Assembly (NCBI GenBank): GCA_900079765.1
Contig: LT599017.1
Location: 3,152,996 to 3,176,995, forward strand
Source: an uncultured Eubacteriales bacterium
GTDB lineage: Bacteria; Bacillota; Clostridia; Oscillospirales; Oscillospiraceae
Length of the DNA: 24,000 bases
Reading direction: 5' to 3'
The position numbers were made by a program, and so were the translations under genes. Below are positions 2,599-23,762 of the stretch, piece by piece; position 1 is the stretch's first letter, and each line of letters opens with the position of its first letter. Below the pieces are notes generated by a model. It saw only the letters and a program-made list of their open reading frames with translations. It was not told the origin of the DNA and did no database searches.

Positions 2599-3393
2599 AT
2601 GACGTTGTGCACCTGCAACTTTTTTTCAAAAGTACTGAAGAACCATGTCTCGGTCAATGTGCTCATTCCCTCGCTGCCCGATAACGACTGCCTTCATGCG
2701 AGTTATGACGAAATCTACCCGGGAGGGCGGCTCTATAAGACCTTATACCTGCTCCATGGGGCTCTGGACGACTACAGCTGCTGGCTCCGGCACACCGCCA
2801 TTGAGCGCTACGCCGAGGAAAAAGGGATCGCCGTAGTCATGCCCTCTGGTCAAAATGGATTCTATTCCAACGCAAAATATGGTCTCGACTATTTCGACTT
2901 CATTACCGAGGAGCTTCCCCGTTTCGTGCAGGGGACTTTTCATCTATCCTCCAGACGGGAGGACAATTATATCGCAGGGCCGTCCATGGGCGGCTACGGC
3001 GCCACGAAATGCGCGCTCTCCCGTCCTGACCTGTTCGCCGCCTTTGCCGACCTCTCCGGCGCGGTGGACCCTGGCGATCTGGAGCCCCGCATGAAATCCA
3101 TGGGTTTCGACTTTTTCCGATACGATCTTATTTTCGGCGGCTCCGAACAGGTAACTGGAACGAAAGACGATCTATACCAGCTGGCCCGAGCCCTGAAGAA
3201 TGCGGCACAGAAACCCGCAGCATGGGTCTTCTGTGGTTTGGAAGACACTGCAAACTATGATATGAACCGTCGCCTTTATGACGCGCTGGCCGCATCCGGT
3301 TTTCAGTCCACATTCCATGACGGGCATGGTGGACATAACTGGCCTTACTGGGATGCCTGTATCAAAACTTTCCTTGAAGAACTGCCGTTCTGA
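2599..3393 (+). CDS. Esterase, esterase-D / tributyrin esterase EstA family (alpha/beta hydrolase)
   Basis: The 264 aa ORF has the nucleophile elbow GPSMGGYG. It shows collinear similarity, from memory, to pneumococcal EstA (FFS..L......VNVL.P, LYLLHG, W.....ER, VVMP, GFY.....G.DY...I.EELP, and C-terminal HDGHGGHNWPYW). Confidence 0.8.
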   Translation: MTLCTCNFFSKVLKNHVSVNVLIPSLPDNDCLHASYDEIYPGGRLYKTLYLLHGALDDYSCWLRHTAIERYAEEKGIAVVMPSGQNGFYSNAKYGLDYFDFITEELPRFVQGTFHLSSRREDNYIAGPSMGGYGATKCALSRPDLFAAFADLSGAVDPGDLEPRMKSMGFDFFRYDLIFGGSEQVTGTKDDLYQLARALKNAAQKPAAWVFCGLEDTANYDMNRRLYDALAASGFQSTFHDGHGGHNWPYWDACIKTFLEELPF

Positions 3394-3402
3394 ATTTACG
3401 AT

Positions 3403-3438
3403 AAAAGTGCTCCGGCCCAGCAGGGCCGGAGCACTTTT
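3403..3438. terminator. Bidirectional intrinsic terminator shared by the convergent esterase and GntR genes
   Basis: AAAAGTGCTCCGGCCC-agca-GGGCCGGAGCACTTTT. The GC-rich stem is perfect and is flanked by an A-run and a T-run. It abuts the GntR stop codon. Confidence 0.85.
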
Positions 3439-4139
3439 TACTTCTCTGCATAAAGTTTTGGGGCCTCTTCCGGCGTCTCTTCCAACGTATGGAGCGAGTT
3501 GTCAATATGCATACGCGCATAGATACCCGCCAACTCAGCATTCCCCTGTTCGATACAGCTAAGAATCATGCCGTGGTACTGAATAGCGTGCTCGGGGCCG
3601 ACGCTGCTGTAAAGCGCGCTCTGATGCTCCCGCAGAAGATCGGTAAGAAGATCGGAGATTTGAGCGATGATCGGGTTGCGCGTCCCTTTGGCAATCAAAT
3701 CATGAAATTCGTTGTCCAAATAGCGAAAGCGCTCATGGTCAGAGGACGCCTCCGACATCTCACTGTAGTTTTTTCGAAGCTTTGCAATATCCTCTTGTGT
3801 GCATTTTTGAATAAAAAGCTCAGTGCTGTAAGAATCGAACATTCTCCGAAACTCCAGCACCGTCTTCATCGTATGGCGGGTAACCGGATAATAGATCAGG
3901 CCGCTGAGAGAGGTCTGCTCAAACTCCTCCACATAGGTCCCAGATCCCTGAAGCTTACGCAGAACCCGCAGCGCACTCAGCTTCTCGATAGCCTGTCGGA
4001 CCGCCGCGCGGCTGACGCCAAGCTCCTGGCAGAGCTGGGTCTCGGTGGCTATTTTCGTACCAGGCACCCACTGCCGTGTTTTTATCTTGTGTGTAATGTA
4101 TTCAAATACCTGATTGGTTGCCTGTGTGCTATACGGCAT
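3438..4139 (-). CDS. GntR-family transcriptional regulator with FadR-type FCD ligand domain
   Basis: The N-terminal winged HTH is TETQLCQELGVSRAAVRQAIEKLSALRVLRKLQGSGTYV. The C-terminal domain is all-helical and FCD-like. The start is reassigned to the ATG at 4139 (MPYSTQ...), preceded by GAGGGAGGG; the ORF-track start at 4163 is a GTG upstream of the RBS. Confidence 0.85.
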   Translation of the reverse strand: MPYSTQATNQVFEYITHKIKTRQWVPGTKIATETQLCQELGVSRAAVRQAIEKLSALRVLRKLQGSGTYVEEFEQTSLSGLIYYPVTRHTMKTVLEFRRMFDSYSTELFIQKCTQEDIAKLRKNYSEMSEASSDHERFRYLDNEFHDLIAKGTRNPIIAQISDLLTDLLREHQSALYSSVGPEHAIQYHGMILSCIEQGNAELAGIYARMHIDNSLHTLEETPEEAPKLYAEK

Positions 4140-4182
4140 ATCGGGCCGCCCTCCCTCAGTCACACTTTTCCTAATTGCTATT

Positions 4183-4253: not shown

Positions 4254-5204
4254 TTACCCCTGCTCAGCCTTTGCAATCTTACCGTGTTTCATGCGGTTTT
4301 TCTTCCTGCGTACGGAGGAGGAATATGCCGCCAGACCAATCAGCGTGGCAATATAGGGCAGTGCCTGCACCGCTTCCGCGGGGACGTTCAGTGTCTGGAG
4401 CACGTTGGAGAGCGCATTGGCGACGCCAAAGGCCAGAGCGGCCAGGAAAGTCGGCAGGGGCGCCGCGCCGCCCAGGTTCTGCGCTGCAATACCCATAAAG
4501 CCGCGGCCGGCCACCATGTCGCGGGCAAACCAGGAGAGGTAGCCCATGGACATATAGATACCGCCAAAGGAGGCAATCACACCACTGATGATTAGCGTAG
4601 TAAACTTGGTCTTTACCACGTTGATACCCACGCTGGCTGCGGCATTGGGGTTTTCGCCCACGGTACGGATACGAAGGCCAAGCGCGGTTTTGAATACCAG
4701 CAGCCACACCACAATCACGCATACGAAGCTGAGATAGGTCAGCACATTGTGTCCGGACAGAATCGTTCCCAGGATGGGAATGTCCTTAATGACGGGAATT
4801 TCAATATTGGGGAAAGTCAAGCTGGGAAGCGAGGTGGAGAGGCCCTTATCGTTAACGAGCACATAGAGCATGAACACTGTGCCGCCCGAAGCGAAGGTAT
4901 TTAGCGCAATGCCGGTCAGAACCACATTCGCGTTCAGTACCAGGTTGAAGTAGCCCAAGAGCAGCATGATTGAGACGCCGCCGGCAAGGCCGGCAAGCAG
5001 TCCCACGAAGAGATTCTGGGAATAGGCGCTGCCTACCACACCGCAGAAGGCGGCGGTGAGCATACAGCCTTCAAACGCGATATGGAGACACCCGCCGCGG
5101 TTGCAGACCAGAGCGGCCAGGGCTGCGAAGAGGAGCGGCGTGGTCACACGGATGACTGAAAACAGGAAGTCGGCGGAGAAAATTGCGGCAAACAGACTAC
5201 TCAT
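4254..5204 (-). CDS. BMP-family (nucleoside/simple sugar) ABC transporter permease, NupQ/YufQ/RnsD-like
   Basis: The 316 aa ORF is a polytopic membrane protein. It overlaps the upstream permease by 4 nt (ATGA). Its position and composition fit the second permease of a BMP-type ABC operon. Confidence 0.85.
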   Translation of the reverse strand: MSSLFAAIFSADFLFSVIRVTTPLLFAALAALVCNRGGCLHIAFEGCMLTAAFCGVVGSAYSQNLFVGLLAGLAGGVSIMLLLGYFNLVLNANVVLTGIALNTFASGGTVFMLYVLVNDKGLSTSLPSLTFPNIEIPVIKDIPILGTILSGHNVLTYLSFVCVIVVWLLVFKTALGLRIRTVGENPNAAASVGINVVKTKFTTLIISGVIASFGGIYMSMGYLSWFARDMVAGRGFMGIAAQNLGGAAPLPTFLAALAFGVANALSNVLQTLNVPAEAVQALPYIATLIGLAAYSSSVRRKKNRMKHGKIAKAEQG

Positions 5205-6307
5205 GCGGCAACCTCCCCTTTCGCGGCAAGCTGTTTCTCAGCGGCTTCCACCAGTTTCTTATGCTTGAGTCTGTGGAGGAAACGCTCTGCTACCACCAGC
5301 ATGATAATGATCGCCTGGATAATGTTGACCAGTTCGATGGGGATATCGTTGGTGCGAGCCATCACGTCGGCACCCACGCGGACGTACGCGAGGAACAGGG
5401 CGGCCAAGGGCACCAGCTTGGGGTTGTAGCCCGCGATGATGCCCACCAGGATGCCATCGAAACCGTGGTTGGTCAGGCCCTGATACTGGAAACGCTTATA
5501 CATGCCCAGCACTTCCACCGCGCCGCCGATGCCGGCGATGGCGCCGCCCAGAAGCTGGGCGTTCATCAGGATACGCTTGACCGGCATGCCGGAGTAGGTT
5601 GCAAAGTCCATGTTCTTGCCCACGATGCGGATCTCATAGCCGCGCTTGCTGCGGTAGAGATAGAAGTAGCCCAGTATCACCACGACGATACCAATCACGA
5701 TGCCGGCATGGACGCTGGTGCCCTCCAGCAGGCGGGGCAGCTTTGCGTTATCTGCAAATTTATAGGAGGCGAGATAGCCCGCCGCCGGATCGCGGAGAAT
5801 ATGGTTAATGATGCCGAGGCCAAAATAGAGGCACACATAGTTAACCATCAGACTGCTGACCACGGGCTTGGAGTCAAATTTCACGTAGAGCGTGGCAGGG
5901 ATACCGCAGGCGATGGCGCCGAAAATACCGCCGGCCAGAAGGCAAACAACGATATGGATGACAGGGGGCAGGTTGAGCACGTTGGCTATGATGGTGGCAC
6001 CCACAGCACCCACGAAAAAACCGCCCTCGACTGCCATATTGGTCTGGTTCGCTGAGAAAATAAGGCAGACTGCTACGCCGGTGAAGAGCAGAGGTGTCAT
6101 CATCTCCACGATGTTGCCCATACGGCGCATGGTAGAGATGGGGCCCAGGATAAAGCTGTGCAGCGCGCTCAGCGGGTCGTCTGTGATAACCAAAATGATG
6201 GCAAAAGCGATACCCAGAGCGATGGCAACGGCCAGCAGCATGCGCAGGATATTGAACTCTTTTTCAATTTCCTTGGGAGATTTGAGCTTCTTATCGTTCT
6301 TAGTCAT
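5201..6307 (-). CDS. BMP-family ABC transporter permease, NupP/YufP/RnsC-like
   Basis: The 368 aa ORF is a polytopic membrane protein. It overlaps the ATPase gene by 8 nt. Confidence 0.85.
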   Translation of the reverse strand: MTKNDKKLKSPKEIEKEFNILRMLLAVAIALGIAFAIILVITDDPLSALHSFILGPISTMRRMGNIVEMMTPLLFTGVAVCLIFSANQTNMAVEGGFFVGAVGATIIANVLNLPPVIHIVVCLLAGGIFGAIACGIPATLYVKFDSKPVVSSLMVNYVCLYFGLGIINHILRDPAAGYLASYKFADNAKLPRLLEGTSVHAGIVIGIVVVILGYFYLYRSKRGYEIRIVGKNMDFATYSGMPVKRILMNAQLLGGAIAGIGGAVEVLGMYKRFQYQGLTNHGFDGILVGIIAGYNPKLVPLAALFLAYVRVGADVMARTNDIPIELVNIIQAIIIMLVVAERFLHRLKHKKLVEAAEKQLAAKGEVAA

Positions 6308-7865
6308 CGTACGCCACGCTCCTAATCTCTTCCGGCGTCATTTTCTTAATGCCAAGCATGTACTCGCCCAGCTCGTCCTCAGACACCGATTGAGCGTCTT
6401 TGAACCACGCCGCAATCTGGCCGTCGCTCATGACCAGAAGGCTGTCGCTCACCTCCATGACCTCGTTGAGGTCGGCGCTGATCAGGAGTACTCCCGCACC
6501 CTTATCCCGAAGCTCCACGAGCTTTTTCCGGATAAAGTCGGATGCGCCGATATCAATGCCGCGGGTAGGCTGATTGGCAATGATCAACATGGAGTCCGAG
6601 GTAAATTCCCGGGCGGCGACCACCTTTTGCATGTTTCCGCCGGACAGCATGCGGATGGGCTGGTCCTTGCCATCGCACTTAACGTTAAAGGCCTCAATCA
6701 GCTCATCGGCCAGATTATCCACCTTTTTCCGGTCCATCAGAATGCCCTTCTGGAATCCGGGCTTATAGTACCGGTCAGAGACTATATTTTCCGAAATTGC
6801 GCCGTCACCCACAATGCCGTAGGTCATTCTGTCCTCGGAGATGTGGGCCACGCCCGCCTCCCGGATCTGGCGGATGCTGTGCTTGCGCACGTCGATAGCC
6901 GTGGTGCCGACTGTCACGTCTCCTTCAAAGCTCTTGTCCATGCCGGTGACGATTTCACTGAGCTCCTTCTGTCCGTTACCCTCAACACCTGCGATTCCGA
7001 TGATCTCACCGCGGCGGACGCGGAAGCTCACGCCGTCCAGCACCTTCTTCGCGCCGCTGGTACCCATCTTGGACACGCAGCGCACATCCAGCACGGTCTC
7101 ACCAGGTTTCGGCTTTTCCTTGTCGATCTTCAGCACCACGTCGCGGCCAACCATCATGCGGGAAATGTCCTGCTCTGTGACATTTTTAATCTCTTCCACG
7201 CCAATGGTGCGTCCGGCACGCATAACGGTGACCCGGTCGCACAGGTCGGTGACCTCCTGCAGTTTGTGGGAGATAAAGATAACGGTATAGCCCTCTTTCT
7301 TTAGGTCCTTAAGCTCCACAAAAAGCTCCTTGGTCTCCTGCGGTGTGAGCACGGCGGTGGGCTCGTCCAAAATTAGAATACGCGCGCCGCGTACCAGGGC
7401 TTTGAGTATCTCTACCTTCTGCTTCTGTCCGACCGACAGGTCCTCGATCTTTGCCAGCGGTTCCACTAAAAAGTTATACTTTTTGGCGGCCTCGGCGGTA
7501 ATTCGGACTGCCTCGTCCATATCAAAAAGTCCGTTCTTTTTTGGCTCCATGCCAATGACCAGATTTTCCGCAACAGTGAGAGAGGGTACGAGCATAAAGT
7601 GCTGGTACACCATACCGATTCCATACTGAATCGCTACGGTTGGGTTTTCGATGTGGACCTCCTCGCCTTTCAGCAGGATGCGTCCTCCCTCAGGCTTTTC
7701 CACGCCGAACAAAACCTTCATTAGGGTACTCTTGCCCGCGCCATTTTCTCCAACAAGCGCGTGGATCTCGCCTTCATTTACATGGAGGTTCACGTCCTTG
7801 TTCGCTACAAAGCCGTTTGAGTAGACCTTGGTTATATTCTCCATCGCCAGGATATTTGCCATCAT
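6300..7865 (-). CDS. BMP-family ABC transporter ATP-binding protein with duplicated ATPase domains (NupO/YufO/RnsB-like)
   Basis: Domain 1 has Walker A GENGAGKST, signature LSVGQKQKVEILKAL and Walker B ILILDEPT. Domain 2 has the degenerate GVEGNGQ, LSGGNMQKV and LIIANQPTRGID. The start is reassigned to MMANILAMENI at 7865, with GGAGG 9 nt upstream; the ORF-track start at 7946 lies inside the intercistronic hairpin. Confidence 0.9.
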   Translation of the reverse strand: MMANILAMENITKVYSNGFVANKDVNLHVNEGEIHALVGENGAGKSTLMKVLFGVEKPEGGRILLKGEEVHIENPTVAIQYGIGMVYQHFMLVPSLTVAENLVIGMEPKKNGLFDMDEAVRITAEAAKKYNFLVEPLAKIEDLSVGQKQKVEILKALVRGARILILDEPTAVLTPQETKELFVELKDLKKEGYTVIFISHKLQEVTDLCDRVTVMRAGRTIGVEEIKNVTEQDISRMMVGRDVVLKIDKEKPKPGETVLDVRCVSKMGTSGAKKVLDGVSFRVRRGEIIGIAGVEGNGQKELSEIVTGMDKSFEGDVTVGTTAIDVRKHSIRQIREAGVAHISEDRMTYGIVGDGAISENIVSDRYYKPGFQKGILMDRKKVDNLADELIEAFNVKCDGKDQPIRMLSGGNMQKVVAAREFTSDSMLIIANQPTRGIDIGASDFIRKKLVELRDKGAGVLLISADLNEVMEVSDSLLVMSDGQIAAWFKDAQSVSEDELGEYMLGIKKMTPEEIRSVAYDD

Positions 7866-7903
7866 AAACGATCGCCTCCATGTTTCTCTGCCCATTTTCC
7901 AAT

Positions 7904-7937
7904 CGCCCTGCGGCAGTTCTAAAACTGCCACAGGGCG
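7904..7937 (-). promoter_or_regulatory. Intercistronic 15-bp stem-loop between the BMP binding-protein and ATPase genes
   Basis: CGCCCTGcGGCAGTT-ctaa-AACTGCCaCAGGGCG, with one mismatch. There is no U-tract on the minus strand. Confidence 0.55.
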
Positions 7938-7950
7938 ACGGGCCATTCTT

Positions 7951-9126
7951 TTAGGGGCGCACGGAATCGCGGATGCCGTTGAGCGTGTCGTTGTCCATGC
8001 CGACGGCGGTCTGAACTTTGATCTCGCCGTTGGCGACCTTCTCCTGCAGCTCCTTCAGCTGGTTGATCTGGTCCTCGCTGAACACGGCGCGGAAGTATTT
8101 GTTATCGGCGGCGCCGACGGACCCCTTGGCAAGACCGGCAGTCTCATAGGCGCCCCAGGGCAGAGTGCCCTCCACGGCGGCCTTCAGAGCGTTGTAGACG
8201 GTATTGTCGATCATCTTCATCATGGAGGTGACAATGTGCTCGCTGAGGATGGGGTCGCTGTCCTCCAAAACGGTGGCCTGGTCGGCATCAACGCCAATGG
8301 CGTAGACGTTCTTCTCCTTGCAGCCCTCCAGCGCGCCTAGTCCGGCGCCGCCTGCAACGGCGAACACAATGTCGGCGCCCTGGTTAATCTGGGCAATGGC
8401 CATCTCTTTGGCCTTGGCGGTATCCTTAAAGTCGCCGATGTAGGAAATCAGGACCTTGATCTCGGGGTCAACAGCCTGAGCGCCCTGAATGTAGCCGACG
8501 AGGAAGTCGTTGATGGCGGTGTTCTCGCCGCCAGCCACGAAACCGATAACCTTGTCGGGGTTGGCGAGAGGTGCGTCGGAGGTTGTCAGCATGGCGGCGG
8601 CGGCGCCCACGACAAAGGAACCCTCGTTCTGCAAATGCTCCATACTATAGATGTTGGGCAGCTCCATATCGTCCTTGGCATCATAGAGAATAAACTTCTT
8701 GTCGGGGAACTCCTCGGCTACCGTCTGCATGGACTCGAGGATGTTGTAGGTGCCGCCGATGATGATGTCCCAATCATCGCTCTCAGCGAACTCGGTCATG
8801 GTGGGGATCTGCTTGGTAGCGTCACCGTTGAGCTCGACGACCTTGGTGCGGAAACCAAACTCCTCGGCCGCGCGCATAAGGCCTGCGTTGGACAGATCGC
8901 AGAAGGACTTGTCACCCAGGTTGGTATTCACAATCATGACCACGCCCACATCGGCGGGGTCCTTGCCGAGACCGGAGGGCTCGCCGCTGGGAGTGGTGCT
9001 GGTGGGGGCGGGAGTTCCGCTGGTGCCGGGAGTGGGGGTGTTGCCCCCTGCAGCGGGGCTGCCGCAGCCGGAGAGAAGGCCGAGGGTCAGCGCGAGAGCA
9101 AGTGCAAGAGAGGTAAGCTTTTTCAT
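7951..9126 (-). CDS. BMP-family (PnrA/Med/TmpC-like) nucleoside-binding ABC transporter lipoprotein
   Basis: The signal peptide plus lipobox is LLSGCGS, followed by a Thr/Pro/Gly linker. The fold is BMP-like (GVVMIVNTNLGDKSFCD...GTYN...VIGFVAGGEN...GVDADQ). The start may be 9126 (MKKLTS, better RBS spacing) or 9132 (MEMKK). Confidence 0.85.
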   Translation of the reverse strand: MKKLTSLALALALTLGLLSGCGSPAAGGNTPTPGTSGTPAPTSTTPSGEPSGLGKDPADVGVVMIVNTNLGDKSFCDLSNAGLMRAAEEFGFRTKVVELNGDATKQIPTMTEFAESDDWDIIIGGTYNILESMQTVAEEFPDKKFILYDAKDDMELPNIYSMEHLQNEGSFVVGAAAAMLTTSDAPLANPDKVIGFVAGGENTAINDFLVGYIQGAQAVDPEIKVLISYIGDFKDTAKAKEMAIAQINQGADIVFAVAGGAGLGALEGCKEKNVYAIGVDADQATVLEDSDPILSEHIVTSMMKMIDNTVYNALKAAVEGTLPWGAYETAGLAKGSVGAADNKYFRAVFSEDQINQLKELQEKVANGEIKVQTAVGMDNDTLNGIRDSVRP

Positions 9127-9205
9127 TTCCATGTTCCTCCTTCGTTTTGTTGCGCTTCATTTTTTTATTTTCAATCCCGCTTCGGCAGGGAATGAACGAG
9201 GGAAA

Positions 9206-9889
9206 TTATGCGGTGGCGGCACGGTGCCGGTTCAGCAGCGGCGTAAAGAAATGGATGGACCACTGGAGGACGGGGCCCGTGAGCAGCATGGCTATGACCG
9301 TTCCGATTCCCCAGGTTGCGGAGAGGAGAATACCTCCTACCACTAGGATGATATCCTGAATGACCTTTGCCTTGGTATAGGAAAACTTCTTTTTAGCACA
9401 CAGGAGCTTGACCAGCCCTTCCAGCGCCCCGAATCCCCGGTCTACCGCAACGTAAAGTCCCAGGCCGCAGCCCATTAGAATGGTGCCAGCCACTGTGCAG
9501 AGCACCCGTGTAACAATGGGCCACTCACAAATCAGAAGACCGCTCAGCATTGGCGTAAAAAGATTTACCCAAAGCCCGATCGTAAAAACGCATAGGACCG
9601 TTCCGATGTTGATGTAATTGCGTGCCAAAAAGAAAAGCACTACCAGCAGCACCATATTGGCCACCGTGTTGGCCGTTCCGTAAGAGATGTTGAACACATT
9701 ATGGATTCCGTCACAAAAAGTTGCCATGGGGCTGCTTCCCAATTCAGCGGCATAAAAAAGTGCCGTCCCAAAGGAAGAAATCATCAAACCAAAAGATATG
9801 ATAATTATGTCGCGTATAACAGAAATGATATTATCTTTCTTAAAATTCAAAATGAATCCGCCGGTCTCTTTTTTTCCCTTTTTCGGCAT
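9206..9889 (-). CDS. YczE/YyaS/YitT-like integral membrane protein
   Basis: The pattern SFGLMISSFGTALFYAAELGSSPMATFCDGI....SYGTANTVANMVLLVV, with about 6 TM segments, fits the YczE/YitT family. The start is reassigned to the ATG at 9889 (MPKKGKKE), with a GGAGGA RBS at 9894-9899. Confidence 0.6.
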   Translation of the reverse strand: MPKKGKKETGGFILNFKKDNIISVIRDIIIISFGLMISSFGTALFYAAELGSSPMATFCDGIHNVFNISYGTANTVANMVLLVVLFFLARNYINIGTVLCVFTIGLWVNLFTPMLSGLLICEWPIVTRVLCTVAGTILMGCGLGLYVAVDRGFGALEGLVKLLCAKKKFSYTKAKVIQDIILVVGGILLSATWGIGTVIAMLLTGPVLQWSIHFFTPLLNRHRAATA

Positions 9890-9917
9890 AATGTCCTCCG
9901 TTTCCCGTCCGTCGTTC

Positions 9918-9947
9918 ATTATAATCGACACTATATCCAACCGTCAA
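9918..9947 (-). promoter_or_regulatory. Promoter for the YczE-like gene (and probably the BMP ABC operon)
   Basis: On the minus strand: TTGACG (9947-9942), an 18-nt spacer, then TATAAT (9923-9918). Confidence 0.55.
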
Positions 9948-10110: not shown

Positions 10111-10881
10111 ATGGAAAAGGAACTCATGCATCATATTAAGTGTGGCAAGGGCGATGTGGGGCGTTACGTCATCCTCCCGGGCGACCCTGGCCGGGTCGAG
10201 AAAATTGCCGCTTTTCTGGATAACGCGAAACATGTGACCACCTACCGCGAGTACAACACCTGGACAGGCACTCTGGAAGGCGTGCCCGTCAGCGTCTGCT
10301 CCACCGGCATCGGCGGCCCCAGCGCCTCCATCGCCATGGAAGAGCTTATCAAGTGCGGCGCCGACACCTTTATCCGCGTAGGCACCTGCGGCGGGGTGGA
10401 CGCTTCTTTGATCCCCGGCGATCTTCTCATTCCTACCGGCGCGATCCGCAAGGAGGGTACCGGCCTTGAGTATGTGCCCGTCCAGTACCCCGCCGTGCCC
10501 AACTACGAGGTTCTCACCGCTCTCGACGGAGCGGCCGCCAAGCTGGGTTATCGCCACCATATGGGCGTGGTGGAGTGCAAGGACAGCTACTATGGCCAAC
10601 ACGACCCCGACAGTATGCCTGCCGGCGATGAGCTGAAAAGCAAGTGGAAGGCCTGGAAGATGGCCGGCGCGCTGGGCAGCGAGATGGAGAGCGCTACTCT
10701 GTTTCTCGTGGCCGGCGTCCGTCGGGTGCGTATGGGCACAGTTCTCCTTCTCTGCCGCAACCGCGAGCGCGAGGCCGTTACTGGACTTACCGAAACCGTA
10801 TGGGACACCGCATCGGCCATTGAGACTGCCATTGAGGCGCTCCGTTCCATCATCCGCAAGGATAAGGAAACCGGAAAGTAA
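10111..10881 (+). CDS. udp: Uridine phosphorylase (PNP/UDP-1 family)
   Basis: The 256 aa ORF is collinear with E. coli Udp as I recall it: ILPGDPGRVEKIAAFLD / VPGDPDRVEKIAALMD, VCSTGIGGPSASIAMEELIKCG..TFIRVGTCGG / VCSTGIGGPSTSIAVEELAQLG..TFLRIGTTGA, and EMESATL. It is clearly closer to Udp than to DeoD. Confidence 0.85.
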   Translation: MEKELMHHIKCGKGDVGRYVILPGDPGRVEKIAAFLDNAKHVTTYREYNTWTGTLEGVPVSVCSTGIGGPSASIAMEELIKCGADTFIRVGTCGGVDASLIPGDLLIPTGAIRKEGTGLEYVPVQYPAVPNYEVLTALDGAAAKLGYRHHMGVVECKDSYYGQHDPDSMPAGDELKSKWKAWKMAGALGSEMESATLFLVAGVRRVRMGTVLLLCRNREREAVTGLTETVWDTASAIETAIEALRSIIRKDKETGK

Positions 10882-10894
10882 TGGATTGAATTTG

Positions 10895-10933
10895 AAAAAG
10901 GAGACCGCGCCAACTGGCGCGGCCTCCTTTTTT
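10895..10933. terminator. Bidirectional intrinsic terminator shared by convergent udp and yjjW
   Basis: AAAAAGGAGaCCGCGCC-aact-GGCGCGGcCTCCTTTTTT. The stem is 13 bp with one mismatch, with an A-run on the left and a T-run on the right. Confidence 0.85.
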
Positions 10934-10939
10934 GTTGCC

Positions 10940-11782
10940 CTATATGAGTCGTGCTCTTTTAAACCCCAGCCCGCGCGCCTCCCGGAGGAGCTCCTCCATC
11001 CATACCCTGTGGGGCTGCGGCATGTCGGAGAGCTCCCCCCGCACGCCAAAGGGGCGGAAGGAAATCAGCTTGAGCGGCGTCTCCGCCGTCTCTTCCGGGC
11101 CGAGGGTCTGGGCTACTCCCTCCAGAACGGCCTTCACGTCTGCCCGCCCCGGTACGCAGACGTGGCGAACCTCCGTGAGCTTGCCCGCCTTCGCCAGGAA
11201 CGCGAGGTTCCGCTTCACCGGGCCATTCTCCTCCCCTGTCAGTTGGCGGTGAATCCCGGTGTCCCATGCCTTCACATCCAGCATGACACCGTCGCACACG
11301 GCAATAAGCTCCGGGAATGCGGATAACTCCACCATACCGTTGGAATCCATCAGGCAGGAAAGTCCTGCCGCCTTTGATAGGCGAAACAGCTCTGTCAGGA
11401 AATCCGGATATAGGGAGCACTCCCCGCCGGAGACGGTAATACCTCGGATAAAGGGGAGGTTCTTCTCTATCTGCACAAAAACCTCTTCCGCCGAGCTCCA
11501 TTTCACCTTGGGGGATGCGCGGTTCGGACAGGCGGCGATGCAGGCGTCACAGCCCACGCATTTCTCCTCGTTCCACACCACTCTTCCCTCTGCAGACTGG
11601 GACAGCGCTCCGCCGGGACAGACCGCAAGGCAGACGCCGCAGCTGTTGCACAGGTTCTGTGTCTCCGGGTTATGGCAGTAGGCGCAGCGGAGGTTACAGC
11701 CCTGCAGAAAAACAGCGGTCCGATTTCCCGGCCCATCCACCACACTGCTGGGGATAATTTTATTGACCGGAGCCCGGCTCAT
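10940..11782 (-). CDS. yjjW: Glycyl-radical enzyme activating protein, YjjW-type (radical SAM with two extra ferredoxin-like 4Fe-4S motifs)
   Basis: The N-terminus is SSVVDGPGNRTAVFLQGCNLRCAYCHNPE (CX3CX2C). It is followed by CNSCGVCLAVCP and CVGCDACIAACP, then ITVSGGEC. The start codon overlaps the stop of the upstream GRE gene (TAATG at 11780-11784). Confidence 0.85.
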   Translation of the reverse strand: MSRAPVNKIIPSSVVDGPGNRTAVFLQGCNLRCAYCHNPETQNLCNSCGVCLAVCPGGALSQSAEGRVVWNEEKCVGCDACIAACPNRASPKVKWSSAEEVFVQIEKNLPFIRGITVSGGECSLYPDFLTELFRLSKAAGLSCLMDSNGMVELSAFPELIAVCDGVMLDVKAWDTGIHRQLTGEENGPVKRNLAFLAKAGKLTEVRHVCVPGRADVKAVLEGVAQTLGPEETAETPLKLISFRPFGVRGELSDMPQPHRVWMEELLREARGLGFKRARLI

Positions 11783-13281
11783 TAGACGGACCGGACCTTT
11801 CTGTCCTTCAGGCGGTTGAGGCGGTAGTTGGCGCTGCCGTTGATGACGTTGTCCTGCAGAACAACCTCCCCCCGCTCGTACCGCTCCAAATCGCTGCGTT
11901 TGACAAGATATCCGGTGACGCGCACCAAATCACCCTGTGCGCCATAGAAGGCGCAGTACTTATCGCCAAGGCTGAACGCGCCCTTCACCAGGTCCAGCAG
12001 CGCGGCCGGATTGCGCTCTGCCGTGGAGTCAAAGGGGAAAATGTCGCTGCAGCCCGTGGGGAAAAATTTATGGAATCGGGCGGAGTGGCGCAGATGGTTG
12101 TGGATGTTGGCGGGCTCGTCACCCACGGTAATGCGCACGCCGGAGGTAACACCCACGTCGTCGGAAAGGCCCGCCTGGGCATGAAGCAAGAAATGTCCGC
12201 CCGCAACTTCGGAATACTTGGCCGGATAGCTCGCGGCAAAGTCCGAGATAACGGTCAGGATACGTTCGGCCAGATCGTCCGCTTCAGCGCTGCTGCCGTA
12301 CCGCCCCCCCCTACCCGCAAGGAGAAGATTTACGCAGTCGCACAGCCCGGCCACGCCGAACATGCCCACGAAACGCTCTCGCTCCACAAGCCCTTCCTGC
12401 ACGAGAAAATCGGACTGGAAATAGCCGGAGTCCTCCACCAAGAATCGGATGCGCTCGTTCATATAGTCGCCCAGCGCTTTCAGTGCGTCGGGCAGCAGCT
12501 CCGTACAGAAATGCTCCGGGTCCTTAGCAAGCTTTGCCAGCCGCGGCAGTACCACCCGGTTCAGGGTGTACGCCCCGCCCCGGAGCGGGAGGATATTGTA
12601 GCAGGAGGAAATACCGTAATCGAAACTGTAGGTGTCCTTGTGTGCCCGGTGATTACAGATAGCCGGGTTGGCGCAGGACAGGGAGCACAAAAGCGCAGCC
12701 TCTGCAAAATCATCGGGAGTAAGCTCACTGTCGTACTTAAGCGTCAGGTTGGGAACCTGCAGCTGCAGCTCCTCGACCAGTTCCAGAATAAGCCGTCCCG
12801 CCCGGGTGGCCTCCGGGCCCAGGTTGGCGTGGCTGTAAGCGTTGGCGATCGTGCGGTCGCAGAACATGAGGAACCGTCTCAGCGCTGCCTTGGCCGTCTC
12901 GTCGTCCACCCCCTCCAGAAAAGGCTCGATCAGCTTATCGATGTTTCCGAGGTACACCGGTTTCGTGGTAATGGAGGGGACATGGCAGTAGAGGATTTCC
13001 AGCGCGTTCAGCACCCCCTCCAGGTCCTTGGGCGGGTCCAGCCGTAAAAATTTGCTGCCCTGCCGGACAAACTTTTCATAGTCGGGCATCACGTAGCGGG
13101 GGCGGTAGGGCGCTTGTCCCTCGTTTAAGTCGTCCAGCCCGCCGCTCTCCCGGTAGTATTGGTAGCGGGGCGGAACATTGAGCACGTCCAACGTGTTTTC
13201 CGCGGCCAGGCAGAGGGCGGTCAGTTTCTGACGGTAGTTCAGGTGGGTGGAAGTGACAATTTCATAGACATTCTGGCTCAT
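11782..13281 (-). CDS. yjjI: Short glycyl-radical enzyme, YjjI family (DUF3029-like); substrate unknown
   Basis: The 499 aa ORF has a C-terminal glycine-radical fingerprint, GDLVRVTGYLVKR. Gly457 is encoded by GGA at 11913-11911, 42 aa from the C-terminus. Translation is coupled to a GRE activase. The length of about 500 aa, versus 750-850 aa for canonical GREs, matches the YjjI family. The RBS is GGAGGA, 6 nt upstream. Confidence 0.75.
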   Translation of the reverse strand: MSQNVYEIVTSTHLNYRQKLTALCLAAENTLDVLNVPPRYQYYRESGGLDDLNEGQAPYRPRYVMPDYEKFVRQGSKFLRLDPPKDLEGVLNALEILYCHVPSITTKPVYLGNIDKLIEPFLEGVDDETAKAALRRFLMFCDRTIANAYSHANLGPEATRAGRLILELVEELQLQVPNLTLKYDSELTPDDFAEAALLCSLSCANPAICNHRAHKDTYSFDYGISSCYNILPLRGGAYTLNRVVLPRLAKLAKDPEHFCTELLPDALKALGDYMNERIRFLVEDSGYFQSDFLVQEGLVERERFVGMFGVAGLCDCVNLLLAGRGGRYGSSAEADDLAERILTVISDFAASYPAKYSEVAGGHFLLHAQAGLSDDVGVTSGVRITVGDEPANIHNHLRHSARFHKFFPTGCSDIFPFDSTAERNPAALLDLVKGAFSLGDKYCAFYGAQGDLVRVTGYLVKRSDLERYERGEVVLQDNVINGSANYRLNRLKDRKVRSV

Positions 13282-13302: not shown

Positions 13303-14010
13303 TTACGGCAGCACCTCCCTACACAGAAGGCGAAGCCCCTGATACTGCTTTTCATTGACTTTGATTGCCCGTCCCTGGCACGAAATCAGGTTTTCCTTTC
13401 GGAAACGGAGCAACGCACGCTGAACGGTCTTGATGCTGAGTCCTGTCTCGTCTGCCATCTGCTGGCGTGCCACATTGAGATGCAAAAGCCCACTTTCTCC
13501 GCTTTTCTCCCAGGCCCGGCACAGGTAGATGGACATGCGCTCGACTCCGCTGAGGAAGAGGTAGCTCCGCTCCGTCCCGGTCTGGTCCACCAGCTGGCGG
13601 ACCATCTGGCAGGTCCTGGAAAAGAGCGCGTCCACATCCCCGCGCACCCATTCAAGGTACGTGCTGCGCGGTAAGGATGCCAAAACGCAGTCCCCCGCGC
13701 ACACCAGCGTCCCGCGGTAGACCGGGCAGTCGGAGAACACCTCGTATTCGCCAAAAATGGCTGGAGCCGTAAAATGTGCAAAGGCATAAACGCTGCCGCT
13801 CTCCATCTCATCCACGCCGCTTACCCGCCCCGCAAGCAGGAGATAGATGTATGTCGCCTCCTCCTGCGCGCGCAGGAGGACCTCACCCTCGCTCATGTGA
13901 AAGACCCGTCCTCCGGTTTCCATTTCCTGCCGCAGACTGCGCAGCAAGATCCGAAAGTACTCCCCCGCATAGCCTTCCAGTCCTTCCACATAGGCCTTGA
14001 TAGCACCCAT
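13303..14010 (-). CDS. Crp/Fnr-family transcriptional regulator (cNMP-binding-like domain plus C-terminal HTH)
   Basis: The 235 aa ORF has a beta-roll-like N-terminal region (VLLRAQEEATYIYLLLAGRVSGVDE...FGEYEVF). The C-terminal HTH is RQQMADETGLSIKTVQRALLRFRKENLI. There is no N-terminal Fnr-type Cys cluster. Its stop is 21 nt before the yjjI start, with no terminator between them. Confidence 0.8.
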   Translation of the reverse strand: MGAIKAYVEGLEGYAGEYFRILLRSLRQEMETGGRVFHMSEGEVLLRAQEEATYIYLLLAGRVSGVDEMESGSVYAFAHFTAPAIFGEYEVFSDCPVYRGTLVCAGDCVLASLPRSTYLEWVRGDVDALFSRTCQMVRQLVDQTGTERSYLFLSGVERMSIYLCRAWEKSGESGLLHLNVARQQMADETGLSIKTVQRALLRFRKENLISCQGRAIKVNEKQYQGLRLLCREVLP

Positions 14011-14166
14011 CGTTCGCTCCTCCTTCGGTGCTTACGCACCAATTCTATGCCCTTATCTTATCAACTAAAAGGACACATGTCCAGTTGCCGGTGAACTCTT
14101 TATTTTGCGCGGCTCCAAAGCACGTTTCTCCGCATGAGAAACCTCCCCTGAGCTGAAGCTAAATAC

Positions 14167-22874: not shown

Positions 22875-23762
22875 CTATGCCCCGCTAAACCCGCGCACTT
22901 CCCTCCAGTATGGAATGGATGGGACCGCGCCCTTTCTCGTCACTGCGATGGCGGCCGCTTTGGCCGCCAGCTCCAGTGTCTGCTCCCATGGGAGTTTCTT
23001 CAGCAGGCCGAAGAGAAAGTACCCGGTAAAGGTATCCCCGGCAGCAGTAGTATCCACCGCGTCCACCCTGAATGCCGCCTGATGGAGCCGCCTGCTGATA
23101 TCACAGTAACAGGAACCTTCGCTGCCGAGGGTCAGCACCGTGCGGGAGTCCGGATAGGTCTTAACCATATAATCCATGATTTTCTCGTGGTCGCTCTCTC
23201 CGGAAATAGCGCTCCCTTCAATCTCATTCATCAGAAAGACAGACACCTTGGACAAGCTGCACTCCTTCAGCTCCTCACTGATGGGAGATGGATTAAGTGC
23301 AATGACCATGCCCTTTTCATAGGCCTTGTCAATCATATAGGGCAGTAAATTAACCTCATTCTGCAAGAGAAACAGGTCTCCCTTTTCAAAGGAGGCGAGA
23401 ACCTCGTCTACGAAAGCCTCGGTAACCTTACCGTTGCTGCCGTCAAAGAGCAGAATGCTGTTTTGCGCGTTCTTGTCTACCTGGATGATGGTGTGTCCGC
23501 CCGGTCCGGCCACTTCTTTGATGAATTCCGTCCGGATCCCATTTTCGAGGCATATGTCGAGGAGCATCTGACCGTCATCGCCAATCAGTCCCGCATGATG
23601 GACCGGCACTCCCGCACGTGCCAAGGCGACGGACTGGTTCAGTCCCTTACCACCTGCAAATGCCTCTCTGCTCTTGGCCTTGTGCGTCTCGCCTCCGCGC
23701 ACCATGTGGTCGACCTGGTATACGTAGTCCACATTCAGAGAGCCAAAATTTAAAACTTTCAT
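22875..23762 (-). CDS. rbsK: Ribokinase (PfkB family)
   Basis: The 295 aa ORF is collinear with E. coli RbsK as I recall it: GSLNVD, GGKGLNQSVALARAG, LNPSP, NE.E, VDAVDTTAAGDTFTGYF and AAIAVTRKGAVPSIPY. Confidence 0.85.
   Translation of the reverse strand: MKVLNFGSLNVDYVYQVDHMVRGGETHKAKSREAFAGGKGLNQSVALARAGVPVHHAGLIGDDGQMLLDICLENGIRTEFIKEVAGPGGHTIIQVDKNAQNSILLFDGSNGKVTEAFVDEVLASFEKGDLFLLQNEVNLLPYMIDKAYEKGMVIALNPSPISEELKECSLSKVSVFLMNEIEGSAISGESDHEKIMDYMVKTYPDSRTVLTLGSEGSCYCDISRRLHQAAFRVDAVDTTAAGDTFTGYFLFGLLKKLPWEQTLELAAKAAAIAVTRKGAVPSIPYWREVRGFSGA

Follow-up and report, generated by a model that had tools for sequence, protein, structure and literature searches.

A YjjI-family glycyl radical enzyme with its activase and regulator beside nucleoside import and cleavage genes in an uncultured Eubacteriales bacterium

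On what does the glycyl radical enzyme YjjI act, and do the genes around it point to an answer? The question is raised by a locus of an uncultured Eubacteriales bacterium (GCA_900079765.1, contig LT599017.1, 3,152,996-3,176,995, forward strand), here called the window, which is the whole stretch of 24,000 nucleotides that was analysed. Within it, a crp-like gene, yjjI and yjjW form a single unit that converges on a uridine phosphorylase gene. The features, numbered within the window, are as follows.

2599..3393, plus strand: PF00756-type esterase, of a family that recurs with the YjjI module
3438..4163, minus strand: GntR/FCD regulator (Pfam)
4254..7946, minus strand: ABC importer core (Pfam), with a double ATPase (6300-7946) and two BPD_transp_2 permeases (5201-6307 and 4254-5204)
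7951..9132, minus strand: BMP/PnrA-like substrate-binding lipoprotein, Bmp (PF02608, 167 bits)
9206..9940, minus strand: YczE/YitT-family membrane protein (Pfam and NCBIfam)
10111..10881, plus strand: uridine phosphorylase, Udp (TIGR01718)
10895..10933, both strands: two-way intrinsic terminator (folding energy, z-score)
10940..11782, minus strand: YjjW-family activase, 280 aa (TIGR04041; Pfam Radical_SAM and Fer4)
11782..13281, minus strand: YjjI-family glycyl radical enzyme, 499 aa (TIGR04040, PF11230)
13303..14010, minus strand: Crp/Fnr-family regulator (Pfam cNMP-binding and HTH_Crp_2 domains)
14066..14087, minus strand: predicted palindromic operator CAACTGGACATGTGTCCTTTTA, conserved upstream of the crp-like gene
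22875-23762: PfkB kinase (TIGR02152, 219.3 bits)

YjjI scores 608.8 bits on TIGR04040 (cut-off 498.3) and 644.5 bits on PF11230 (cut-off 23). It has a glycyl motif, RVTG457Y, near the C-terminus and a finger-loop motif, GISSC227YN, with C227 as the sole invariant cysteine; both motifs are invariant across 43 diverse family members. The AlphaFold2 model has a mean pLDDT of 90.1, and its 24 top PDB fold matches (Foldseek) are all class III ribonucleotide reductases, with E-values of 1e-15 to 1e-12 and TM-scores on the query of 0.6-0.77. The start of yjjW overlaps the stop of yjjI. YjjW reaches 366 bits on TIGR04041 (cut-off 250). Its radical-SAM motif (C29-X3-C33-X2-C36) is followed by a two-cluster ferredoxin insert, whose CX2CX2CX3C motifs are CNSCGVCLAVCP and CVGCDACIAACP. 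As a member of its family, YjjW is expected to set a glycyl radical on Gly457 of YjjI. In living E. coli cells, a chemical probe labels Gly465 of YjjI as well as Gly734, the known glycyl-radical site of PflB (bioRxiv 10.64898/2026.08.13.742689). FNR activates E. coli yjjI (PMC3688515), and the yjjI/yjjW genes of Yersinia are induced anaerobically (PMC3792023).

On TIGR01718, where the equivalog cut-off is 280.3, the uridine phosphorylase reaches 290.6 bits. It is 65-85% identical to the YjjI-adjoining Udp copies of 16 other loci and just 57% identical to the second Udp-type copy of its own genome; this second type is the only one found in 10 other genomes of the genus. By these identities, the Udp that adjoins YjjI is a module-specific copy. 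A sequence-only reading of this DNA had described yjjI and yjjW as converging on udp with a shared terminator, and the hairpin and its folding on both strands agree with this. The common element of udp and yjjW is the stem-loop CCGCGCC-AACT-GGCGCGG, with an A run on one flank and a T run on the other. Its folding energy is -28.7 kcal/mol on the plus strand (z -6.2) and -31.8 kcal/mol on the minus strand (z -6.9); of 200 shuffled versions, none is as stable.

The BMP-family ABC importer that had been noted beyond udp is indeed present, although it ends at 9132 rather than 9126. The whole importer (4254-9132, minus strand) is composed of a Bmp-family binding protein, a double ATPase and two BPD_transp_2 permeases. 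The YczE/YitT-family gene is the first of the importer operon, which is transcribed away from udp, and the GntR/FCD gene closes it. Among solved structures, the window's Bmp matches T. pallidum TmpC (2fqw, E 1e-30) and BmpD of Borrelia (basic membrane protein D; 6shu). TmpC is PnrA, a receptor for purine nucleosides, and BmpD binds nucleosides as well. Judging from the family and the neighbouring Udp and Cdd genes, the ligand of the importer would be a nucleoside, but nucleoside binding is not universal among BMP-family proteins: a solved atrazine-binding protein, 6pi5, is another match.

The crp-like gene ends 21 nt ahead of yjjI, and inspection of its translation found no N-terminal FNR-type cysteine cluster. 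The predicted operator has the core GGACA-TG-TGTCC at 14071-14082, and its centre is 29.5 nt before a TAGAAT box (14042-14047), which would place it at about -41.5. Related loci carry the same palindrome (consensus AAAAAGGACATATGTCCTTTTT) at 39 sites ahead of yjjI or the crp-like gene. Among 48 Crp-upstream regions, 21 have the exact GGACA-N2-TGTCC, while shuffles give at most 3. In the window's own genome, the site upstream of the crp-like gene is the sole strong intergenic match; within the window, no such site was found in the promoters of udp or the importer. The palindrome AAGGACA-N2-TGTCCTT is probably bound by the unit's own Crp-family regulator, which would activate rather than repress the crp-like/yjjI/yjjW unit.

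A survey of the gene families within 10 kb of YjjI, made without prior assumptions, covered 84 loci. YjjW adjoins YjjI in 79 of these, and the Crp-like family, which lies directly upstream of YjjI, is present in 50. The BMP-type ATPase was found in 40/84 loci, and the permeases and Bmp in 39/84 each, so that the importer core recurs in 39-40 loci. Udp/DeoD-type phosphorylases occur in 32 loci (Udp-type in 27), cytidine deaminase (Cdd) in 17, DeoB in 12, DeoC in 10, Pdp in 8, a NupG-type symporter in 5, nucleoside hydrolase in 4 and PsuG in 3. The YczE/YitT family is found in 20/84 loci, with PNP< YczE> Bmp> as the usual arrangement, and the GntR/FCD family holds the same place in 10/84. The esterase family is seen in 8/84 loci; one representative matches PF00756, and the window's own gene gives weak NCBIfam esterase matches only. 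A pyrimidine-specific gene is present in 42 loci, and a DeoD-type phosphorylase without one in a single locus.

In 36 of the 84 loci, YjjI stands in a tightly spaced same-strand run with a nucleoside gene; the run at one locus (L043) reads YjjI YjjW Bmp ABC Crp Udp DeoD DeoC Cdd DeoB. In the window itself, YjjI and the nucleoside genes are in separate operons. Nucleoside importers recur in many gene orders and belong to three clearly unrelated families: BMP-ABC, NupG-MFS and NupC/CNT. An ECF transporter that adjoins a phosphorylase is possibly a fourth kind. Among the recurrent neighbours, none points to a reductant or co-substrate. At one locus, a phosphoribosyltransferase gene comes right after YjjW. 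An association of YjjI with nucleoside genes was not reported in the literature searched.

It had been proposed that co-localisation with nucleoside genes in two distant phyla would be unlikely by chance, with enrichment near YjjI as a test. The idea is supported by the two checks made, those of enrichment and of the E. coli gene order, and the enrichment is strong in the clade to which the window belongs. The named nucleoside genes lie within 10 kb of YjjI at 48 of the 64 loci from outside Bacteroidota and in 3 of 54 matched controls (p = 1.5e-15), counts that are inflated by shared descent because the 64 loci were drawn from the 80 closest YjjI relatives. The control regions were taken from genomes other than those of the YjjI loci, and the search models were built out of the very loci counted. 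Merging of the YjjI proteins at 80% identity leaves 22 clusters, 18 of them positive, and the own-genome background is 5.7% of positions. Among Enterobacterales, 5 of 7 YjjI loci have deoCABD and/or a nupC-like gene. The Bacteroidota loci are at background (2/16), with housekeeping and polysaccharide genes as neighbours. An even sample of Bacillota shows the link at 4/20 loci, or 3/14 genera, compared with 4/54 controls for a wider nucleoside gene set (p = 0.13). The link is not family-wide; it depends on the clade. The gene at 22875-23762, which had been called ribokinase and counted in the pattern, is ribokinase-like and not part of the pattern: its score on TIGR02152 is below the cut-off of 299.65, it is 9.6 kb away beyond unrelated genes, and PfkB genes are not enriched near YjjI (4/64 loci against 3/54 controls).

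The genome of the window encodes a second YjjI, of very divergent sequence, within the run LacI-PfkB-YjjI-YjjW-amidohydrolase-nucleoside hydrolase-deoxyribosyltransferase-ABC, and the subfamily of this copy heads BMP-ABC operons in gut Lachnospiraceae. Both paralogs adjoin nucleoside genes, for which the chance is about 0.3% (0.057 squared). The gene order stated earlier for E. coli K-12 was correct: yjjW (b4379) and yjjI (b4380) lie on the minus strand next to deoCABD (b4381-b4384), with a gap of 257 bp. A nupC-like gene after yjjW is kept in other Enterobacterales but missing in K-12. The K-12 and window proteins belong to the same families (TIGR04040/TIGR04041; PF11230, formerly DUF3029), are about 41% identical and share the glycyl motif, the single finger-loop cysteine, the activase type with a ferredoxin insert and the adjoining nucleoside catabolism genes. 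They differ in that the K-12 pair is transcribed away from deoCABD, whereas the window pair converges on udp beside a BMP-type ABC importer. Moreover, the K-12 pair is under FNR (PMC3688515), while the window pair has its own Crp-like regulator and predicted operator.

The window probably contains an accessory module that serves the anaerobic use of nucleosides, made up of the importer, a dedicated Udp and the crp-like/yjjI/yjjW unit, in which the YjjI radical acts on an imported nucleoside or its product. The importer part would comprise the BMP-type ABC importer, the YczE-like membrane protein and the GntR regulator. The Crp-family regulator of the crp-like/yjjI/yjjW unit would turn this unit on from the palindrome near -41.5. 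YjjW, as the radical-SAM activase, would then place the glycyl radical on Gly457 of YjjI, and Cys227 on the finger loop would start an oxygen-sensitive reaction. The target would be an imported nucleoside, mainly pyrimidine, or its cleavage product; a pentose or deoxypentose phosphate or a pyrimidine base, as suggested earlier, would fit the pyrimidine-biased neighbours. The parts around YjjI are those of nucleoside operons such as E. coli deoCABD, nupC and nupG: phosphorylases, DeoB, DeoC, Cdd, and BMP-ABC, NupC or NupG importers. Bacillus has the nucleoside operons dra-nupC-pdp and the BMP-type nupNOPQ. We know of no described nucleoside operon that includes a glycyl radical enzyme, whereas in the window and many Clostridia YjjI/YjjW are first in nucleoside operons or flanked by them.

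As to the chemistry, the glycyl-radical eliminases and lyases (CutC/CutD choline TMA-lyase, the 1,2-propanediol and glycerol dehydratases, HypD hydroxyproline dehydratase and PflD) remove a group adjacent to a hydroxyl-bearing carbon, which makes them plausible chemical models if the substrate is a nucleoside or pentose. They have the same radical machinery and the same ferredoxin-insert activase class (TIGR02494-type matches for YjjW), and they match the YjjI fold with E-values of 1e-12 to 1e-10. They differ in length and family (~750-850 aa, PF02901/PF01228), YjjI being far shorter at ~500 aa, and the finger-loop motif is S-C-Y-N in YjjI against C-x-E in the dehydratases. YjjI may carry out an undescribed radical transformation of the nucleoside or its ribosyl moiety, e.g., removal of the 2' substituent without reduction or a CutC-like elimination of the base, although this is somewhat short of probable. 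A narrower form, the likeliest single guess at the chemistry although still rather unlikely in itself, begins as ribonucleotide reductase does: a ribosyl hydrogen is removed and the neighbouring substituent is then lost, as dehydration or elimination without NrdD-type reduction.

The closest solved fold is that of the class III ribonucleotide reductase NrdD, which likewise has RxxGY near the C-terminus and a finger-loop cysteine and gives a profile-profile match to YjjI over ~445 columns. On this fold rests the very unlikely alternative that YjjI is another anaerobic reductase, which converts imported ribonucleosides to deoxyribonucleosides or deoxyribose phosphates for DNA precursor salvage or as an electron sink through DeoC. 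Ten of the 84 loci, and Enterobacterales too, have DeoC or the deo operon close to YjjI, and the second-copy operon includes a nucleoside 2-deoxyribosyltransferase. Against this, hhalign finds no YjjI counterpart of the NrdD reductase residues, zinc ribbon or N-terminal regulatory region, in an alignment with low confidence except at the glycyl motif: YjjI begins at about residue 128 of E. coli NrdD and is gapped over the zinc ribbon, R62-Y63 takes the place of Cys175, and the residue two positions ahead of the YjjI cysteine is Ser where NrdD has Met382 by Cys384. Cys175 and Met382 are reductase residues of NrdD. Only one cysteine of YjjI is invariant, YjjW is of the ferredoxin-insert type and not NrdG-like, and thioredoxin or formate genes are not recurrent near YjjI. 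The YjjI profile gives E = 0.23 against solved NrdD sequences, and a Pfam scan of the window's YjjI at E <= 0.001 returns PF11230 alone, without the NrdD model PF13597. Some YjjI relatives have weak precomputed PF13597 matches. The window's genome encodes a true NrdD (673 bits) with an NrdG-like gene after it (G000:C1:2846211-2848753), and this separate pair rules against YjjI as the organism's anaerobic ribonucleotide reductase; NrdD is found in 40/41 relatives, compared with 5/61 for YjjI.

An unlikely alternative is that the substrate of YjjI is not the sugar but the freed nucleobase (uracil or thymine), so that anaerobes would use or detoxify the pyrimidine ring by a radical route after Cdd, Udp or Pdp. 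The pyrimidine-biased neighbours (Udp-type, Cdd, Pdp and PsuG) have uracil as a common product, reductive pyrimidine-breakdown genes are absent from the recurrent neighbours, and the phosphoribosyltransferase after YjjW and the amidohydrolase of the paralog operon would also suit it. However, the same pathways all yield ribose or deoxyribose phosphate too, the closest fold is that of an enzyme working on the ribose ring, and ring-opening or downstream genes are not recurrent nearby. Adjacency without pathway meaning, in which an anaerobic cassette landed beside nucleoside loci, was inherited there or shares regulation only, is quite unlikely. It would explain the separate units and regulators of the window, the absent link in Bacteroidota and weak link in other Bacillota lineages, and the co-expression of FNR-activated E. 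coli yjjI with nitrate-respiration genes (PMC3228777, PMC3688515). It accounts poorly for the many gene orders, the three to four unrelated importer families, the presence of both phosphorylase-based and hydrolase-based cleavage genes, the two paralogs of one genome and the shared same-strand runs. A role in nitrogen-oxide or nitrogen metabolism is highly improbable: in E. coli and Salmonella, yjjI falls together with narG into a conserved expression cluster that has FNR/NarL-like motifs (PMC3228777), but anoxic co-expression is expected of any FNR-controlled gene, and nitrogen-oxide genes are not recurrent near YjjI in the 84+20 surveyed loci.

The probable reading thus remains that of a module for anaerobic nucleoside use. 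Since nucleoside genes adjoin YjjI here, in most close Gram-positive relatives and in relatives of E. coli, the candidate substrates of the enzyme can now be narrowed to a short list open to testing. If YjjI does carry out an undescribed transformation of a nucleoside or its ribosyl moiety, this would be a new anaerobic branch of nucleoside breakdown, one that would be widespread in gut Clostridia and Enterobacterales and, in Bacillota, under dedicated Crp-family control.

The gene for the glycyl radical enzyme YjjI (TIGR04040/PF11230) forms a unit with that of its radical-SAM activase YjjW, and this unit converges on a gene for uridine phosphorylase (Udp). On the far side of udp lies an ABC importer with a BMP/PnrA-like substrate-binding protein (Bmp). 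YjjI, YjjW and Udp score above their curated equivalog cut-offs; the gene order below comes from the ORF listing and family scans.

13303-14010, minus strand, Crp-like regulator, heading the yjjI-yjjW unit
11782-13281, minus strand, YjjI
10940-11782, minus strand, YjjW
10895-10933, both strands, terminator hairpin common to udp and yjjW
10111-10881, plus strand, Udp
9206-9940, minus strand, YczE-like (YczE/YitT-type) membrane protein
7951-9132, minus strand, Bmp
6300-7946, minus strand, importer ATPase
5201-6307 and 4254-5204, minus strand, importer permeases
3438-4163, minus strand, GntR/FCD regulator
2599-3393, plus strand, esterase (PF00756)
22875-23762, PfkB kinase, ribokinase cut-off not reached

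The terminator hairpin is strong in both directions (-28.7 and -31.8 kcal/mol), and none of the shuffled sequences folds equally well. Both the convergence on this terminator and the adjoining importer, as described in the sequence-only reading, are present, and that observation is confirmed. What links YjjI to nucleoside genes in the window itself is their adjacency and the conservation of the module, rather than a common transcript. The same reading had placed a ribokinase at 22875-23762 in the neighbourhood. This gene was rejected as a member of the pattern, as its product is a PfkB kinase scoring below the ribokinase cut-off and genes of its type are not enriched near YjjI. Beyond 14.2 kb, the window carries genes for a DUF2207 protein, a Liv-type ABC system and a polysaccharide deacetylase, none of which recurs near YjjI in the other surveyed loci.

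The best 80 YjjI loci were surveyed with 10-kb flanks, scanning one genome per species. These loci share 56-76% identity with the window YjjI and comprise approximately 60 from Bacillota and 16 from Bacteroidota; addition of the window, its paralog, a congener and E. coli gives 84. ORFs were chosen by homology support and clustered without prior labels, and the recurrent clusters were annotated afterwards. YjjW was found within 10 kb of YjjI in 79/84 loci and a Crp-like regulator in 50. The BMP-type ATPase is present in 40 loci, the permeases and Bmp in 39 each, and a Udp/DeoD-type phosphorylase in 32. Less frequent neighbours include cytidine deaminase (17), LacI (14), DeoB (12), DeoC (10), Pdp (8), a NupG-type symporter (5), nucleoside hydrolase (4) and PsuG (3). 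YjjI shares one tight same-strand run with a nucleoside gene in 36/84 loci. The YczE/YitT-type protein (20 loci), the GntR/FCD regulator (10) and the PF00756 esterase (8) travel with the Udp-BMP-YjjI module.

For comparison, 60 control regions were taken from 20 YjjI-holding Bacillota genomes, themselves found in an even sample of 400, and all loci and controls were scored with the same profile models. The sequence-only reading had asked for an enrichment test on named genes, scored here as the set Bmp, Udp/DeoD, DeoA, DeoB and DeoC. The set is enriched in the non-Bacteroidota loci among the 80, where 48/64 carry such a gene as opposed to 3/54 control regions of at least 5 kb (p = 1.5e-15, in a comparison that includes non-independent, related loci, draws its controls from other genomes and uses models built on the same 84 loci). 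The enrichment does not extend to the Bacteroidota loci (2/16), and few positives occur in the even Bacillota sample (4/20, or 3/14 genera). When the YjjI proteins are merged at 80% identity, 18/22 non-Bacteroidota clusters are still positive. As a background within the window genome, a gene of the wider nucleoside set lies no more than 10.75 kb away at 5.7% of positions.

The loci without the nucleoside link have neighbours of other kinds. In Bacteroidota these are an OPT transporter, fructose-bisphosphate aldolase, acetyl-CoA hydrolase, ClpP, ribosomal protein S16 and glycosyltransferases. Several other Bacillota lineages show neighbours such as an HD-domain protein, an Mrp-like ATPase, a 300-aa protein or chemotaxis genes. 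Hints of the nucleoside link occur there now and then. One is a phosphoribosyltransferase; another comes from a Bacillota genome (L111, 5518-8412) in which the genes after YjjI-YjjW encode an IF-2B/MtnA-like isomerase, a class II aldolase, a SorC/DeoR-type regulator and a BMP importer, a run that resembles a 5-deoxyribose or methylthioribose shunt.

The E. coli gene order given in the sequence-only reading proved correct: on the minus strand of MG1655, yjjW-yjjI point away from deoC-deoA-deoB-deoD, with 257 bp between. Enterobacterales were sampled through YjjI homologues and the contigs encoding them. In Edwardsiella and two other loci, yjjI-yjjW are sandwiched by deoCABD and a nupC-like gene, and in a fourth a nupC-like gene immediately precedes them. 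Neither accompanies yjjI in Proteus or in one further locus. In three loci (L180, L216 and L217), the nupC-like transporter gene has yjjW on one side and the TatD-like yjjV on the other. These two genes are separated in E. coli K-12 by just a 420-bp gap (4614260-4614680), and the nupC-like gene next to yjjW has probably been lost.

Among the other loci, the BMP-ABC importer may be downstream of YjjI, upstream or divergent, and the partners vary. Neobacillus has a NupG-type symporter directly after YjjW, Caproiciproducens-like genomes an ECF transporter and a phosphorylase, Texcoconibacillus nucleoside hydrolases and a PfkB kinase, and Faecalispora PsuG and a kinase. The window Udp is a module-specific copy, with 65-85% identity to YjjI-linked Udp in 16 other loci and only 57% to the second Udp-type copy of the same genome, which is the sole type in the 10 other genomes of the genus. 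This second copy sits in a cluster of Cdd, Bmp, DeoC and the Udp-type phosphorylase without YjjI (G000:C1:2507551-2517222).

The window genome also holds a second, very divergent YjjI/YjjW pair (G000:C1:916000-929600; locus L018, 7311-19998). Here the run, under LacI control, is LacI, PfkB, YjjI, YjjW, a 208-aa protein, amidohydrolase, nucleoside hydrolase, nucleoside 2-deoxyribosyltransferase and a BMP-type ABC importer. In abundant gut Lachnospiraceae and Eubacterium, members of this copy's subfamily stand first in BMP-ABC operons. On two such contigs (L209 and L210), the run is LacI-YjjI-ABC-Bmp with no adjoining YjjW gene, and the activase must come from a gene located elsewhere or be shared. 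Proteins of approximately 195-215 aa, resembling MgsA_C only weakly, recur in these paralog-type YjjI/BMP operons, twice in L018 (11681-12307 and 18803-19450) and once each in L209 (14279-14866) and L210 (14229-14810).

In a tree of 105 YjjI proteins, the nucleoside association is found on both sides of the midpoint root. Bacteroidota YjjI (L069-L098) form a single clade nested within Lachnospiraceae-type sequences, which suggests acquisition by transfer from Clostridia. Two MAG contigs, labelled Spirochaetaceae (L024) and Bacteroides thetaiotaomicron (L076), have Clostridia-type contexts and may be mis-binned. The distribution of YjjI is patchy, with the gene in 2/11 genomes of the genus and, besides the window's own, 20/400 sampled Bacillota genomes. 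Taken together, the varied partners and arrangements, the divergent paralog, the tree and the dedicated Udp indicate more than inherited gene order.

The Crp-like regulator provides a further feature of the module. A palindrome scan of upstream regions returned 39 sites with a 22-bp consensus, AAAAAGGACATATGTCCTTTTT (AAGGACA-N2-TGTCCTT), ranging from Oscillospiraceae to Neobacillus across several Bacillota classes (loci L020-L094 and the window). The palindrome is placed before the Crp-like gene, or before yjjI where yjjI heads a large operon, and its exact form occurs in 21/48 Crp-upstream regions compared with at most 3 in shuffles. In the window it lies at 14066-14087, its centre 29.5 nt upstream of a TAGAAT box. 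This would correspond to approximately -41.5, the position used by CRP/FNR-family activators. No other strong intergenic match occurs in the window genome; the second-best match was dismissed, as it falls within an 812-aa ORF. In a wider-regulon scan of five other genomes, the palindrome was almost unique to YjjI promoters, and it is not enriched before the udp, yczE, Bmp or ATPase genes. The palindrome is probably the operator of the dedicated Crp-family regulator. The translated window regulator lacks an FNR-type cysteine cluster, so a small-molecule effector is likely. The conserved operator and dedicated regulator offer a route to identifying the inducing metabolite.

The YjjW protein carries a CX3CX2C motif and two ferredoxin-type cluster motifs, and YjjI has an RVTG457Y motif with C227 as the sole invariant cysteine. 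There is no solved structure of a YjjI family member, and the best PDB sequence match is an anaerobic ribonucleotide reductase (E = 0.23). An AlphaFold2 model built from 43 sequences (pLDDT 90.1, pTM 0.90) was used in a fold search of the PDB. Class III reductases account for every one of the best 24 matches (E = 1e-15 to 1e-12, TM 0.6-0.77), followed from 1e-12 by PflD, hydroxyproline and propanediol dehydratases, PFL and CutC. A YjjI-NrdD profile-profile alignment covers approximately 445 columns with the glycyl motifs aligned (E = 2e-5). The N-terminal 127 residues, zinc ribbon, Cys175 and Met382 of NrdD are without a YjjI counterpart in this alignment, whose confidence is low except at the glycyl motif. 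The window genome also has a true NrdD/NrdG pair, found in 40/41 relatives. YjjI was rejected as a true NrdD on these grounds and on the Pfam scan of the window YjjI, which gave only PF11230. YjjI therefore has a reductase-like core and is not the reductase; it is probably devoid of NrdD-type reduction activity, and a reductase role is regarded as highly improbable.

Thioredoxin, formate channel and dehydrogenase genes were sought among the recurrent YjjI neighbours and none was found. The neighbours show a pyrimidine bias, with Udp-type, Cdd, Pdp or PsuG in 42 loci and a DeoD-type phosphorylase without any of these in one. Action on a base is considered unlikely, though less so than reduction. 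A ribosyl-directed elimination is given somewhat more credit, as a tentative proposal. At the level of genomic context, the interpretation that YjjI acts on a nucleoside-derived metabolite is supported, and it is held with good confidence that YjjI is functionally tied to nucleoside use in the clade of the window.

To our knowledge, YjjI is among the last E. coli glycyl radical enzymes without a function. Studies have reported that FNR directly activates E. coli yjjI (PMC3688515) and that anaerobic conditions induce yjjI and yjjW in Yersinia intermedia (PMC3792023). [quoted passage not shown] A preprint of August 2026 describes YjjI as uncharacterised, with Gly465 probe-labelled in living cells (bioRxiv 10.64898/2026.08.13.742689). 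No published YjjI function or nucleoside link was found in the searchable literature, subscription journals being outside its scope.

The window locus is unexceptional within a catalogued family that lacks an assigned function, and its value is that this function becomes testable. On the neighbourhood evidence, the search for a substrate comes down to a few dozen compounds that can be purchased, namely nucleosides (pyrimidine, purine and modified), pentose phosphates and pyrimidine bases. With this list, a laboratory strain can be used to test the long-standing question of YjjI directly. Should the reaction prove new, gut bacteria would have an extra branch of anaerobic nucleoside catabolism, and the glycyl radical enzymes a novel type of chemistry.
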